35,497 nt of DNA from Raja brachyura (lineage: Eukaryota). A model generated the notes under the pieces. The model saw only the letters and a program-made list of their open reading frames with translations, did no database searches and had not been told where the DNA came from. Location of the stretch: contig OY740782.1 in NCBI GenBank assembly GCA_963514005.1, forward strand, positions 77,128,001 to 77,163,497, read 5' to 3'. Each line of letters begins with the position of its first letter. Positions within the stretch are counted from its first letter, which is position 1. The position numbers were made by a program, and so were the translations under genes. Of the stretch, positions 10,980 through 18,629 are shown in pieces.

Positions 10980-11857
10980 ATCTGGACCCGTAAATTCTGT
11001 TCTAGACTTCAGTCACAGAAAATCTTAGAACTGTCTCAAATCGCGTGCTGATTGTATATAACATCTAGTCACACAGAATAACTGATAAAACTCAGTAATG
11101 TAGAAGTAAACACTGACAGCATTGTACCATGCAAAATTCTAGACACAAACCACAGAAAAAGAAACATCTGTCTGGCTTACATTCTTAATTTACTTACTTT
11201 AACAGGTAGCTCATAACATTAAGCCCAACAAATATCCGAGTAAACATTATAATTCTGAGGTATTTTAACAATGTGCTACTGCTGGTCTTAAGATAACCAT
11301 CGTACATTTGGAAGGGGAACAAACTTAACACCTTTCACCTTTCACCTTTCACATTTTACATAGCCCAGTGCAATGAAGTATACAGTAATTCCTGTACATC
11401 TAACCTTTCAGTGTGAGGAGAACAACTCTATTTGCTCAGCTCCACTTTCAGCATGAACAAGAAATGCACCACTTCCACACCAATTCATTGATTACATTTT
11501 TTATATAAAATCTCTACATCTACATATAAGGGCCACGTGACCCTGGCTCTCAGCAGCATTTTTAGAAAATATTCGTAAAAAGATAAAACTCTTGACAATA
11601 TATACAACCAGCGCAGCTTACAATATATATGCAACACGTTAAATTAAAATAGGACAATTATATTATACAGTAGTTGGTTTTTAGTGTAAACGCTTTTGTA
11701 ATAGTGCATCTCTGGTTCGTGTAGAGATTGGCAGATTTTTATTTCCAAGCCACAATGTTTTTTTTGTTTGCTTCCCAGAAAATCATACAGAGTTACATTT
11801 TGTGTTCTTTTTTAACTGAAAATGCATGGTTCCATTTTGGGTTTGTTTTGAAATGTT

Positions 11858-12210
11858 TCAGCCCGAGGTATTAAGAGTTTCTGAGGTAGATGATGAAGGG
11901 GAGGGGGTCGATGAGGTAGAGCTAGATTTATCTGAGGTGTCTTCTGTATTTGCTTCACTCCCAGGCGTGGCAGGCGAAGCTGAGGTAAGACCCTCCTTTT
12001 CCCGCTTTTTCTGTTTCATGCGTCGATTCTGGAACCATATTTTCACCTGGGTTTCGTTAAGCTGGAGAGCAGCAGCAATTTCCACCCGCCTGGCCCGGGT
12101 CAGGTACTTATTGAAGTGGAACTCCTTCTCTAGCTCTGTCAGTTGCTTGGTGGTGAAATTAGTTCTCACTGTATTGGGCTGGCCGGCAAAACCATACTCT
12201 CCAGCCTTTC
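11858..12210 (-). CDS. hoxa1: Homeobox protein Hox-A1, exon 2 (homeodomain)
   Basis: Acceptor tttag|GA at 12211/12210; encodes (G)[73 protein letters not shown]...; phase 1 matches exon 1; joined CDS 978 nt. Confidence 0.97.
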
Positions 12211-12454
12211 CTAAACCGGTAAGAATTGATCACAAAACAAATGAATAAGTCAGAGAGGATTTAAAGGGAATAATGTTTCAATTGCTTGCAAATCAGGTCT
12301 AGGTTTCATGCACCGAAAAAATAGTATTCCTGCGTAGTGTTTAGGGTATGTAGACAAACGAAACTATTACCGCCATATCGTCAACTGGTTCATGTTTAAC
12401 ATTGACTTCGGGTGAGGCCCAAAGGAATGGATACAAAATTATAGATCACAGGAA

Positions 12455-12481
12455 GGGGGGGGGGGGGGGGGGGGGGGGGGG
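12455..12481 (+). repeat. G27 homopolymer in hoxa1 intron
   Basis: Uninterrupted run of 27 G. Confidence 0.9.
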
Positions 12482-12661
12482 ACAATTCAGACGAAAGGTG
12501 AGCTCACCGGGTTAGCTTTAACAATATGCAACAGATTAAGAGTCGTTGGTTTGTTTTAGGTATGACAGACTTGGCAATCACTTTTCCAGTATACTTGCGA
12601 GAATCTGGCTTCATCCTATAATTTAGCATAAAAAGAGATATACACAGTAAATCCACTTTAC

Positions 12662-13286
12662 CTGTCTTTGGCGGATTCCTCTTCACTTTCATCCACTCAA
12701 AGGTCTGTGCTGGAGGAGAGGTCTCAGCTGACGGGGAGCAGCAAGATTCCTGGTGACTGCCAGGAGCGGGTGACAGAGGGTGACAGCCTGCAGCCAGCAC
12801 TAAGCCCTGCTGCTCTTGCCTGTAAGGGTGATGGGTATATTGGCCTGGTCTCACCATCCCGCCATAGCTATGGTGCTGTGGGCTAATTGCTGAAGCAAGG
12901 TTGCCAGGATAGACAGCAGGATTACACTGAGGATAACCTCCGTTGCCATCAGTCTCTTGATTTAGTGAGTAGTGATGACTGTAGCCTGTATTGAAGCTTT
13001 GTGCTGGGTATCCCGTCCCACAGTTAGGGTGGGCACTGTAGGGGATGCTCAGGTTGTTATGTGTGTAACTAGCATGTTGATGGTGATGATGATGAAGAGG
13101 AGCACCTATCTGAACACCTCTGCTCACGATATAGCGGTCATCAACGTTGCTGTTATTATTGCCAACGGCACAAGACTGATAAGTTGTAATTCCTTGATCT
13201 GCATGGTAACTTCTGGAAGAACAAGTCCCAGTTTCTCCGCTAATAATAGAATAGTCTAGGAAGGAGCTCATCCTTGCATTGTCCAT
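12662..13286 (-). CDS. hoxa1: Homeobox protein Hox-A1, exon 1
   Basis: Starts [12 protein letters not shown], has a His tract and the hexapeptide region [14 protein letters not shown]; donor ACAG|gtaaag at 12662/12661. Confidence 0.97.
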
Positions 13287-13289
13287 CTG

Positions 13290-13364
13290 TCATTGGATAA
13301 CCAGCCTATAAAGTGACTGTCCACCAACCTGGATGGACCGTGCCAACTTCCCCACTTCCTCAAT
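13290..13364 (-). other. hoxa1 upstream ORF with near-cognate ATT start (24 codons + TGA)
   Basis: ATT GAG GAA GTG GGG AAG TTG GCA ... ATC CAA TGA CAG ATG; same frame as the CDS; resembles the recalled human HOXA1 uORF MEEVRKLA...Q*. Confidence 0.6.
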
Positions 13365-13399
13365 AGAGCTGAAAGAAAATTATATCAATATACAGTGAA

Positions 13400-13492
13400 G
13401 TGTCGCCACGTGACTCCAGCCAGCCAATCGCCAGTCTCGCTGCGAAGTTTGCATGCCCTTGCGGTGATCGATCACTGTAGTGGCATTTAAAT
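13400..13492. promoter_or_regulatory. hoxa1 proximal (probably bidirectional) promoter
   Basis: E-box CACGTG 13407-13412, CCAAT 13424-13428, palindromic GTGATCGATCAC 13464-13475; CpG-rich. Confidence 0.7.
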
Positions 13493-13699
13493 TACAAACG
13501 CTCTTCCATCAAGGTTGCGAGCATTATTAGCCCACAAATGCATTATACTTCAAAGCATGCCCGGCAGAATGCAGAAGGAATTTATTCAAGATACACGTAC
13601 TGTTCCACTGAGGTCTGCAGTGGTATTAGTGAAGGCGCCGATCGCGCGTCCACAATGGGGAAATATCCGTCCTCTTCCGCACAGTAGCCTCTCAGACAG
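13445..13699 (+). ncRNA. Candidate Hotairm1-like lncRNA exon 1
   Basis: AAGTTTGC...GTGATCGATCAC...TAGTGGCATTTAAAT resembles the recalled 5' end of human HOTAIRM1; strong donor CAG|GTAAGG at 13699/13700; syntenic and divergent from hoxa1. No expression evidence. Confidence 0.45.
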
Positions 13700-16600
13700 G
13701 TAAGGAAACTGTTCGATGCTTTAATATTAAACACTTTGCATTTTAAAGCGTACAGAAAGACAATCGTGCCATCCTCGACCTACGGGAATTAGACGTTTCT
13801 GTCCAGTGTCTCAGCCACAGCATAGAGGTGAACAATCTTTTATTTATTAGAAGAACACAACTCGCCGATCTAAGGTCGGGAAAATCTACGCAAAACCTAT
13901 CGGATGTTAGACCGGACGGCGCACTTTAATGAAAGAAAATACAGGTAACTAATGCAGTTCCTTCTGGCATAGGATAGCCCGGTCACATTTATTATTAACT
14001 GATTATACCCCCAATGGTAATCCGTGCGACGTAAAGACGTCCTCAAAGCGTAGGACGAAATTATTAATTGGACCAAGAGGTTTATGATGTAGATATTTAT
14101 AATTAAACTGTGTGTGCTGTGGCGTCCGCTTGTAAAAGGAGGCGCCATGTCTTCAGCGTGCACGGATGTCAGCACAGCCTATCAAGGCCTGGCCTGCGCC
14201 TTCCCTCAGCTTTCCAGCTATTGGCATGGAAATGAGCAGCCTCTTCCACCGAACACAGGCTGCTGGGAGCTTCCCCCTCACTATAGGATTACAGGCAGCC
14301 AAAGGATATTCCTTACATTGGCAGGCTGCCTATTCATTCTGGTTGCTGCGGGAATCAGAGTGTACTTTTTTTTTACACACACAGAGTTATGAATAATAAC
14401 TCCACTTGGCCATAGCATAATGCAGCCAAACGCGGTCGATTCGAAGGCGCAGCCGCCCATCTGTCAGCTTCCTGTAGAGTCCTCCCCGAGCAGAGAGGGT
14501 CGGTCATGATTTGAGATCAATCTTTTGCGCATTACAGACTGACGTGGATCAGGTTTACAGACAATAATTTACTCGGAATAATTAATGATGTCAAACGGTG
14601 GATTCTAATCCCATAGGAAAATTGTCATATAACAACAAGAGGCGGATATGGCCACTATTTCTATATACTTACAGCTTTTTGAACATCAGCATGGGGATTA
14701 ACAATAATGAAAATATATGTTTCTTTCAGTGTTATAATATATTCAGTTTTCTCAAATCAATCAAATACACATGAGCAAATGAGCTGATTGTTGCTATTTG
14801 CGGCCTGCGTGTTTGTGTTTAATGCATTACAAGTATATAGTGAACAAATCATGAAAATAATGTCAGCATATATTCCATATACCCTATACTAAGAAACAAT
14901 TTTATAAACACAAAATCACTTTGTAATCCTTTCATTGACCTTCGTAAAGCACCAGTTTAAACCAGTAGTAAAATCTTACTGGTACATACCACTTCATATC
15001 CAGCAGGTAACGGGGGCACAGAAATGAATGGTAAAGTACTGAGAAAAGATATGTTACTTTTTTTCAAGTATATCAAAATACATTTTTTTCACTGATTGCA
15101 GCAGTAGATTGTGTCGATTTTCCATAAAATATTCTTTTTTCCCGTCCTGCATTCCTTCAAAATATATTCTTTCCCGTTTATAAAACGCGACAATTAGAAC
15201 TTATATTTTAATGTGTTTCCCCGCCTTCCATGTGCTCTTAAGTTGAAACAAATGAGCAGCTTTACAGTAACAGGCAGCTCCGCCATTTTTATTCACTGGG
15301 TCTGTTCAATCAATGGATAGGAAACTGCCTTTTGAAGAGATCTGGGATATGTGGATTTTCAAGGGAAAATAATGTAAATGTTGAAGTTGCAAAAACAATT
15401 CTCCCCTTCCCTAAAAATAATTTCTTGATTGAGGTATCCTACGGACCCTCGTAAGTAATCTACTACCACATCTCACCGCCACCCAGCACACACAAGCACA
15501 CATACAGACAATCTCGCCCGTTAACCAAGGCCGCCTTTGCGTTTATAACTGTAATTGCCTTAACCATACCATTTGTGGAATAACTGGGCTTGCTTCTCTC
15601 CTTGATACGTTTGTAGGAAAGACACATTTCTGGTAGCCTACCCATTATGTCGTGTAAAGACATGTTTCATAGCGACATGTTATTGACAATGTGTCACTGT
15701 TTGCCCGTGCGGTTTGCTTTTAGTAGGCAAAAGTATCGTCTTCCCCGTGGACAGATAATAGCAGCCTGATCAAGTAAAAAAAAACACAATTGCAGTAATA
15801 GCTTACAATTAAAAACGCTCTTTCCGCCATATTTCTGCTTAGTCATTAAACAATTTGACCTCCGGAGTAACAGTAACATCGCTGTAAATCCGTAAGTAGT
15901 TTGTTTCAAATTCGAAGTGAGTGGCAGCAGCGCAGTGCTCTGTGAAAATGAATTACGACTCAACGCCTACAACCTAGAAACTGACAGAGGATCCCCGGCC
16001 AGCCAAATACGTAAGATGACTTTTTTTTTTGTTATGTGCTACTGCGATTGATCCATTTGATGACATTCTCATTCATAAAACAGGATTGATTTATGAGATT
16101 GGGAAGTATTACCTCCAGAGCCGTTCCCGTCACTGCCTTATGCAAAAAAGCTTAACGTGCTTAGGACGCAAACAGGAAGGCTGGAGCAACGCTCGTCGTA
16201 ATCAAAGTTTCTGTTGAATCGAAATAAGAACTACAACAAATTCTTCGGGGTAGGCCATGTGGTGGGGTGGGGGTGGGAGTGGGAGTGGGGGTGGGGTGAG
16301 CATTGTTATAAAAAGGTTAAAACAAAAAAAAGAATGGTTGCCTATAAATCCCAATGCACAATGAGGATGCATTCCTACAGCTGTTGATTTATTTGTACAA
16401 ATGCAAACGTGAAAACAAAGTGTAACTCATATTGCGTTGTATGAAATGTGGTGAAAAATAAGGTTATGTTTAGTGAAGACTTTTATGAACATGAATCTTT
16501 TCACAGAGTAAACATTTGTGTTGAATAGAGAATAGGCTGTACCAACGCTCTCCCGAAGTCCATATTTTTTTAATTGAATACAATCATTTCCCCATATATT

Positions 16601-17614
16601 TCTCTGGAGAAATTAACAAAATAAAAGTAGTAAAGGGCGTGGTGTTATTTTGAATCTTTAACATCCTATTTTAAATACTAGGTCGATCGCGCATGACATA
16701 GTAAAACATATGGGAATCTATATTGCTGATGATGACTGGCAGCAAGCGAGATAAGGGATAGTGGAATCGGCGCGAAAGATTAGCTACTGACATCAATAAA
16801 TAGAGCGTTGTTTGATAACAAGTGCACATGGCCATGGACAAGTAAACTTTTCTCCTTCTTTCCTAGATTTTCAGAGAGGTGGCTGATAATTCCATGGTGA
16901 AATCGTAAAGATTAAAAATGTCAAGAAGATTTTTCTGCGAAATATTGTGATTTCCACCTGTGTCCGCTTGTTTGCATTTATGCAGTTTATGAAAGTGCTC
17001 ATGTATTGTGTGAGTTAATAAACGTCACTTTATTAGATTTACTTCGTCCTTGGCTCTGTATCGCAGTTTTGATAAGTTTTCAACCACAGGTTTATTTTCT
17101 TTCTCTCTGTGGAGATTTACTCCAATAAAGATACTGGATTGTTTTCACCCTTTTCAATAAAATACCGTAAAGAAAAACCAAAGAACGAGACTGACCAGCG
17201 TCGTCGATTTCATTAATGAATTTATGTCAAAAAGAAAACAAAGGATATTTATTACGTGTAAATAGTCCTGAGAGAGAAAATGCTTCAGGGTGGCTACCTG
17301 TAGCGTATAATACTTTATTCTATCAAATTATTAATGGAAATGCACCCTAAAATAATACAAAGTAAAAGAGGTAATAGAGCGATTGGTCAATATGTCTGAA
17401 ATAATTTTCACGTGGACCCATGTATTGCTGAAGAACAAGTTGTGAAATATGGGGGGAAAGTACAACAATGATAATTGATTTTTTGCAATTCTACGTGGTC
17501 CTCAACACATTGAAGTTAATTAAAATGGAAAAAAAATACTGACCATTTGAAAGGAAATGAAGGAAAGGAAACGCATTTAAAAGAAGGCATATTTTCCTTA
17601 CAGCGACTGTTCAG

Positions 17615-18354
17615 TTAGTAGCTCAAATGCTGCAAATCGATTGTAGTTAGAGTATCCGTAAAAAAGTCAAAACTGTCTGCAGAAAGATCCACAGGGCTGT
17701 CCAGAGACCCGGGTAAACTAGGCGATACTCCATCTGAAAGCTGTAAGCAGGATTCTGTAGAAAACACATTAAAATCCTGTAAAGAAGGGACATCAAGGGC
17801 CTCTGGACTGTCATTGTCCAGGCCAGCTGCACAGTTCTGGGCCATTGTTGACAGGCAGTTTTGAACAGTGGGTGACTGTTGAAGAAAATGTTTTAGATTT
17901 TTCTCATTGCTGGGTAAAGGCGAAACTGGGAAACTTTGGGATTCTCCATTGTGTAAATTCTGGGCCTGCTGTTGAGTCAGTGCATTGGTTTGAAAAGTAT
18001 AGCCTTCCCTGTCCAAGAGAGCGCCAGTAACATTGTTGATGCCTTGCTCAAAGAGTGACTTCTCTTCGTCATCTTCAGTCTGCCCACTGTCCTCCAAATT
18101 CTTAAATTTGCCATCTCCGTTTTGGTTTTCTTTGCATTGGGTCTGTCTTTTGTGCTTCATTCGTCTGTTTTGAAACCACACTTTCACTTGTCTTTCAGTC
18201 AAATCAAGCAAGGCTGCAATCTCCACCCGCCTGGGTCGACACAGATACTTGTTGAAGTGAAATTCTTTCTCCAGCTCCAAAAGCTGTGTGTTTGTATAAG
18301 CAGTCCTTAACCTCCGCGATCCCCCGCCTGTATTATCCGGAATTTCATGAGTTT
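17615..18354 (-). CDS. hoxa2: Homeobox protein Hox-A2, exon 2 (homeodomain)
   Basis: Acceptor ctgtag|AA at 18355/18354; [67 protein letters not shown]...[10 protein letters not shown]; joined CDS 1092 nt. Confidence 0.97.
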
Positions 18355-18629
18355 CTACAGATAAGTGGACGCGAAAAAAACAACCATAAAACATATTATA
18401 ACCACTTGAATCAAAAAAATATAAAATATAGACTACCCACTGCAACAAAATGGCCGCCTGAATGCAGTAAATCCATTGTTTCAGAGTCTGCGGCTGTGGC
18501 GTTTACCTCTTTCTAAAATATTAAAAATATTGCAAAATACACATGTGCAGTAGCCCCAATCTTACAGCCAAGTTCGCAACAGCCTTTGCACATTTGGTGA
18601 TCTCTGTATCAGCTGCTTTACCATGAAAG

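Follow-up and report, generated by a model that had tools for sequence, protein, structure and literature searches.

Human HOTAIRM1 is an antisense RNA transcribed between HOXA1 and HOXA2, divergently from HOXA1, and occurs in three-exon, exon-skipped and unspliced forms (Wang and Dostie, PMC5388432). It was called mammal-specific by Yu et al. (PMC3541083) and was extended to birds and reptiles via Rfam by Gardner et al. (PMC4378963). Counterparts in amphioxus, Xenopus, medaka and gar have been assigned by microsynteny, and the RNA is held to predate the living chordate lineages (Herrera-Ubeda et al., PMC6784235); the main text of that paper, in the portion available, names no cartilaginous fish. 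We analysed the corresponding locus of a ray, Raja brachyura (GenBank assembly GCA_963514005.1, contig OY740782.1, forward strand, positions 77,128,001 to 77,163,497); this whole stretch of 35,497 nucleotides (nt) is called the window, and all coordinates refer to it. Between hoxa1 and hoxa2, at the 3′ end of the HoxA cluster and opposite to these two minus-strand genes, it probably holds a spliced and alternatively spliced antisense transcript that is the counterpart of HOTAIRM1, with a predicted local effect on the 3′ HoxA genes. That the ray antisense RNA is an orthologue of HOTAIRM1 we state with high confidence. The direct observations behind this are its position, the plus-strand GT..AG joints that three organisms show, a single poly(A) end and two blocks of HOTAIRM1 homology.

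As in human, the antisense position and the divergence from hoxa1 go together with alternative splicing and polyadenylation, and the ray data include skipped, included and apparently unspliced forms. Unlike human HOTAIRM1, the ray RNA has an extra exon of 91–94 nt near exon 1, and its middle and last exons are shorter. With Hotairm1 of amphioxus, Xenopus, medaka and gar it shares the place between Hox1 and Hox2, to which the ray adds sequence and splice-site evidence from comparison with human. Other Hox antisense RNAs have been traced to cartilaginous fish, namely HOXB-AS3 and HOXA-AS3 (PMC8330917) and the bamboo shark counterparts of HOXA11-AS and HOTTIP (PMC8293171). Conservation of these is likewise concentrated at promoters, whereas their places in the clusters differ. 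No description of HOTAIRM1 in a cartilaginous fish was found in the literature searched, with genome annotations outside that search; the ray RNA may already be present in such annotations.

Transcript evidence

Seven of 17 matching public runs were compared with the window, all of them assembled contigs, from four studies and three organisms: X1–X4 belong to one relative of the ray (relative A, one study), X5 and X8 to a second (relative B, two studies), and X14 to the species itself, with zero mismatches. Such contigs fix neither the start, the strand nor the expression level of a transcript, and stretches without contig cover were not read as silent. A joint was counted as bridged if its short side had at least 31 letters.

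The initial annotation of this DNA had placed a donor CAG|GTAAGG at 13699/13700, an acceptor CTTTTCTCCTTCTTTCCTAG at 16847–16866 (junction 16866/16867) and AATAAA signals at 17017, 17124 and 17156, and all of these are present as claimed. Taken by themselves, such motifs carry modest weight only: AGGT[AG]AG occurs eight times on the plus strand of the whole window and once inside 13445–17180, acceptors with 12 pyrimidines occur twice on the plus strand of the window, and three AATAAA within 150 nt are expected somewhere in the window with p ~0.43, against p ~0.008 for at least three in the 340 nt from the acceptor to the end of hoxa2. They rise above chance because contigs of the public runs use them, as in the joint 13699–16867 and the poly(A) end at 17037.

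Donor 13699 is in use in six of the seven runs, in all four studies and in all three organisms; the remaining run, X3, has no cover on exon 1. The joint 13699–16867, with GT..AG ends, occurs in X1, X2, X4 and X5, that is in four of the seven runs and in both relatives, and the acceptor 16867 appears in the listed joints of five. Seven distinct plus-strand GT..AG joints were counted. Since the hoxa1 intron reads CT..AC in X8 and thus serves as an internal control for strand, whereas the other joints have GT..AG ends, the latter are assigned to the plus strand. Two further joints, 12160–12662 and 16130–16166, have other end types and were discounted, being probably due to paralogues or indels. 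The claim of a spliced antisense transcript on the plus strand is supported by joints in three organisms and by polyadenylation at 17037.

The joints might be artefacts of assembly or of DNA, or the signal might be an extended 3′ untranslated region (UTR) of hoxa2. In favour of this it may be said that the runs are contigs and not reads, that their kind is guessed and that several joints have short sides. However, identical GT..AG sites recur in four studies, minus-strand RNA would give CT..AC as hoxa1 does, and hoxa2 has its own end at 17204. We regard such an explanation as hardly conceivable; for X1 and X3, which are flagged as probably DNA, joints and tails argue for RNA despite the flag.

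Exon structure and isoforms

Exon 1 spans 13443–13699 and starts 157 nt from the hoxa1 ATG at 13286, the start being approximate. The contig of X14 covers exactly this interval (depth 28.6, no mismatches), and contigs of the relatives over exon 1 start at 13407, 13495, 13499 and 13505. An E-box CACGTG at 13407 and a CCAAT at 13424 lie in the promoter common to hoxa1 and the antisense RNA.

Downstream of exon 1, middle exon A (13851–13944, ~91–94 nt, plus strand, donor CAG|GTAACT) has tandem acceptors TAG AAG at 13848–13853, of which 13851 is used in the ray itself and 13854 in both relatives; the joint 13699–13854 is found in X1, X5 and X8 and the joint 13699–13851 in X14. From its donor, exon A is joined to the last exon in X5 and X8 (13944–16867) and to middle exon B in X14 (13944–16084, one contig, depth 7). 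Exon B (16084–16249, plus strand) is the positional counterpart of human exon 2. Its acceptor was seen, and we infer that its donor at 16249 is joined to 16867 in X14: record 6 of that run stops at 16248 with exactly 30 unplaced letters, record 7 has its end at 16895 (one shared base) instead of the 16894 of other runs, one X14 joint was dropped beside the repeat at 16257–16303, and GGG|GTAGGC stands at 16249. From continuous intron cover in X14 we further infer an unspliced form. This run covers exon 1 and has zero cover in bins spanning 10468–11802 and 12337–12870; its low-depth cover (2–3) at 9934–10467, 3′ of hoxa1, might represent an upstream exon of the antisense RNA or else read-through from hoxa1.

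The last exon (16867–17037, plus strand) measures 171 nt up to the first poly(A) site, where 24 A follow 17037 in X3, one of the seven runs, 15 nt after the AATAAA at 17017–17022. Internal priming is unlikely at this site because the genome has one A in the next 20 nt. The initial annotation saw three AATAAA converging on the hoxa2 3′ end; a poly(A) end stands behind the first, and no listed end goes with 17124 or 17156 (17124–17161, plus strand), which are possible distal poly(A) signals seen in the sequence. Contigs of X1 and X2, which carry no strand, continue across 17037–17204. The site at 17037 lies 167 nt short of the hoxa2 mRNA end, and the proposed HOTAIRM1-like architecture, divergent from hoxa1 and ending near hoxa2, is supported.

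Separately, the last part of the intron (16324–16866) is covered at depth 9–15 in all four runs of relative A, even in X2, which otherwise is nearly without intron cover, and the X3 poly(A) contig takes in this stretch. The cover could stem from a long last exon beginning at 16084, from a retained intron, or from minus-strand read-through of hoxa2.

A further isoform overlaps hoxa1. Its upstream exon (at least 11470–12218, plus strand) is antisense to hoxa1 exon 2, comprising homeobox and 3′ UTR. The donor of this exon, CCG|GTAAGA, is placed 8 nt within the intron of hoxa1 and is joined to 13514. This isoform is represented by one X2 contig of 967 nt (depth 22.4) that carries the joints 12218–13514 (side of 185 letters) and 13699–16867, and it was seen in one of the four runs compared on that stretch. 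The donor (12211–12225, plus strand) coincides with the hoxa1 acceptor region on the other strand, and the pyrimidine tract of that acceptor is poor.

A mouse transcript among the Hotairm1 variants and Hotairm2 likewise partly overlaps Hoxa1 (De Kumar et al., PMC4510006). The mouse Hotairm1 amplicon of 165 nt falls within the homeobox of Hoxa1, in the region of the ray upstream exon, and its primers can be placed on the ray sequence at 12140–12159 (reverse, two mismatches) and, by eye, at 11995–12014 (forward, four mismatches). In reading this comparison it has to be kept in mind that primers in the homeobox could also detect Hoxa1 mRNA and that the ray isoform is one contig.

Taken as a model, the two-exon structure 13699 to 16867 of the initial annotation stands in so far as the joint exists in two relatives; the structure is richer, with middle exons and a hoxa1-overlapping isoform, and the joint is not listed in the run of the species itself.

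Homology to human HOTAIRM1

The initial annotation had likened the start block to the 5′ end of human HOTAIRM1. This likeness appears to be real homology, according to alignment with the human cDNA and to the sole Rfam family that matches. The human cDNA was taken from Table S3 of PMC5388432, and all human comparisons beyond Rfam were made by eye. The block lies at 13445–13543 on the plus strand. In the alignment, which sets the first base of the human cDNA on 13445, identity is 53 of 74 columns (72%), with one 3-nt gap and an exact 14-nt core match at 13479–13492. Two annotated bases are missing from the human cDNA; with them, its start would come to lie on 13443, the first position of the X14 contig, a weak hint of a shared start. 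Rfam family HOTAIRM1_1 (RF01975) matches at 13473–13543 with 20 bits (E 4.1 over 4227 families, ~1e-3 per family) and is the sole one of 4227 families to match the 321-nt stretch 13400–13720, in the expected place and on the expected strand. Inside the block, the internal acceptor at 13513/13514 aligns to the AG|GT of the region-1 consensus.

The second block, at 15876–16119 on the plus strand, is a conserved element of 244 nt, mostly intronic, that matches Rfam HOTAIRM1_2 (region 2, RF01976) with 106.5 bits, compared with a gathering score of 37. It takes in the acceptor of exon B: in the Rfam alignment, human exon 2 has a 5′ extension of 24 nt whose first base lies 5 nt upstream of acceptor 16084 in the ray. 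At 16010/16011 (16004–16018), a donor-like CAAATAC|GTAAGA is nearly invariant with respect to the region-2 consensus and occurs in no listed joint; it may be an exon end or a binding site. A search of low sensitivity for paralogous copies of both blocks in the ray genome found only the window itself.

The same two-way promoter might have given rise to the transcript anew in this lineage, so that its likeness to HOTAIRM1 would be one of position only. Consistent with this, the remaining exon sequence, namely the exon-1 donor, middle exon A and the last exon, has no similarity to human cDNA that is recognisable by eye, and the last exon measures 171 nt where the human one has ~480 nt; a faint likeness, by eye, of the human 3′ end to ~17023–17050 is not counted here. 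On the other hand, the start and one internal acceptor match human at near base resolution, and amphioxus, gar, medaka, Xenopus, birds and mammals are all reported to have transcripts in the same place. We consider an independent origin improbable and retain the reading as HOTAIRM1.

Coding potential

In six isoform models of the intergenic region, the longest open reading frames (ORFs) measure 58–81 amino acids, lengths that 8–33% of random sequences reach. The hoxa1-overlapping isoform holds an ORF of 188 amino acids, mostly an antisense frame of the homeobox exon. A small protein could thus be encoded either by an ORF of 49–73 amino acids in exon 1 or by the 188-amino-acid ORF. In its favour, the joint 12218–13514 puts 131 antisense codons in frame with 57 more, and when hoxa1 is recoded synonymously, only 274 of 5000 versions keep the antisense frame open. 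However, the antisense part has 71 database matches, mostly unnamed, which look like shadows of homeobox genes, and the short ORFs are of chance length. The best match (P0079, 93%) was considered, on account of its length, as a spliced 188-amino-acid product and rejected: it continues into the hoxa1 intron, with nothing matching the exon-1 part, and is an unspliced antisense reading. A coding role appears most unlikely, and on these sequence grounds we treat the antisense transcript as non-coding.

Constraint on DNA or on RNA

Several results weigh against the transcript and its proposed function as described here. None of the 17 runs is recorded as RNA, X1 and X3 are flagged as probably DNA, and no DNA control is among the seven runs compared. 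The joint 13699–16867 is not among the listed joints of X3, X8 and the own-species run X14, and its short side of 25–30 letters falls under the bridging rule of 31, which on the plus strand only 13699–13854 in X8 and 12218–13514 in X2 satisfy. The 20 bits of the HOTAIRM1_1 match are far under the gathering score of 70, and the match is missing from the listing of a wider Rfam scan. Rfam HOTAIRM1 regions 3–5 are unmatched at E up to 10 in 13200–17700 or 16120–17300, where only unrelated families at chance level appear. Exons 1 and 3 fold no better than shuffled sequences (z −0.93 and −0.75), and conservation of exon 1 compared with the intron among relatives gives p 0.25, 0.07 and 0.001 in three comparisons of the matches listed, using the longest pieces only. 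The gap in regions 3–5 limits the retention of sequence and not orthology, because in reptiles, too, some of the HOTAIRM1 regions are not recovered (PMC4378963).

The conserved blocks hold four matches to TGATNNAT, two of which form one palindrome, compared with 0.4 expected. The palindromic site stands at 13465–13474 in the 5′ block and the other two at 16049 and 16087 in the region-2 element, which also has TGACA sites at 15982 and 16061. We take TGATNNAT to be a PBX-HOX-type site. The 5′ block hairpin was considered as RNA structure and rejected; its stem is interrupted by a mismatch in the human sequence, as judged by eye, and we read the hairpin as a DNA palindrome. Because of the TGATNNAT motifs, the mostly intronic position of region 2, the unremarkable folding and an exon 1 that is not clearly more conserved, the conservation may reflect promoter or enhancer function, and such constraint at the DNA level could explain both blocks. 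Conservation limited to factor-binding sites, which the initial annotation had named as speaking against its proposal, is compatible with the four TGATNNAT matches and with regions 3–5 being unmatched.

The RNA may be real and old and yet largely a by-product, with selection acting on the DNA of the hoxa1 promoter and of a PBX-HOX/MEIS enhancer while the two-way promoter keeps making the transcript. We give this nearly the weight of an even call; it is compatible with orthology and differs from our reading only with respect to function. The excess of TGATNNAT matches fits it, as do exons without special folding, human homology confined to ~100 nt beside the hoxa1 promoter and the mostly intronic block of 244 nt, and a report that zebrafish is without the RNA (PMC6784235). 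However, donor and acceptors are shared by three organisms, one acceptor lies no more than 5 nt from the human one, and another aligns to the AG|GT of the Rfam consensus. A splice-blocking morpholino altered Hox expression and head development in Xenopus (PMC6784235), and knockdown in human cells altered HOXA timing (PMC5388432). For selection on the RNA, the stronger case comes from the retained splice positions; these rest on one contig from the species itself and on comparison by eye.

Possible mechanism

For the reading as a locally acting HOTAIRM1, we propose that the antisense RNA would start from the promoter common with hoxa1. Retinoic acid would switch it on together with hoxa1, via a DR5-type retinoic acid response element at 8695–8711 (minus strand), 3′ of hoxa1, as candidate shared input, in addition to the presumed PBX-HOX sites. 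Polymerase would then cross the conserved element at 15876–16119 and stop short of the convergent hoxa2 end. The unspliced and spliced forms would remain close to the locus, where they would adjust chromatin and timing of the anterior HoxA genes, a step modelled on human cells only, where unspliced HOTAIRM1 associates with UTX/MLL and spliced HOTAIRM1 with PRC2 (PMC5388432). In mouse, a 3′ retinoic acid response element has been proposed as the driver of Hotairm1/2 (PMC4510006). The window holds two exact DR5 matches, at 8695–8711 and 29752–29768, both on the minus strand, compared with 0.10 expected; the second lies upstream of hoxa3-like exons. By analogy, a cis role of this kind for the RNA or its transcription in this fish is a serious possibility that we would put slightly below an even prospect.

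Neighbouring genes and further observations

The divergent neighbour hoxa1 has its coding region at 11858–13286 on the minus strand (exon 1 13286–12662, exon 2 12210–11858; 325 amino acids). The best matches of its exon 1 are Hox-A1 of stingray (92%), horn shark (86%), chimaera (78%) and bamboo shark (75%), and matches of bony vertebrates reach at most 64%, a pattern that points to a cartilaginous fish, probably of the ray or skate type. The hoxa1 intron contains a run of 27 G at 12455–12481, real or an effect of assembly. On the other side, exon 2 and 3′ UTR of hoxa2, named from its translation, span 17204–18394 on the minus strand (ORF 17615–18394, stop codon ~17615). The end of its mRNA at ~17204 is marked by 23 T ahead of 17204 in X3, and an X14 contig also begins there. 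Elsewhere in the window, a short repeat-like element at ~7050–7250, recognised by eye, occurs in two copies of inverted orientation, with a similar copy near 1320–1435.

Implications

Retention of the RNA in the ray had been taken to imply an origin at or before jawed vertebrates. An earlier origin is already published from amphioxus (PMC6784235), so that the date of origin is not moved. What the ray adds to the history of HOTAIRM1 is the missing cartilaginous fish, by splice evidence and some sequence evidence, where deep orthologues have so far been positional. Exact exon coordinates are now available for in situ probes and for splice-blocking tests in embryos of skate and shark, and two questions become separable, namely whether the conserved blocks are retained for DNA binding sites or for splicing.

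A bolder proposal, which we put forward tentatively and regard as rather doubtful, is that the splice architecture of HOTAIRM1 and not only its position has been kept since the split of sharks and mammals, including the start, the middle-exon acceptor and the isoform antisense to the Hoxa1 homeobox that enters a hidden acceptor in the 5′ block. If true, part of the apparent conservation of the Hoxa1 promoter would be selection on RNA splicing, and HOTAIRM1 would be among the very few long non-coding RNAs with base-level structure common to all jawed vertebrates.

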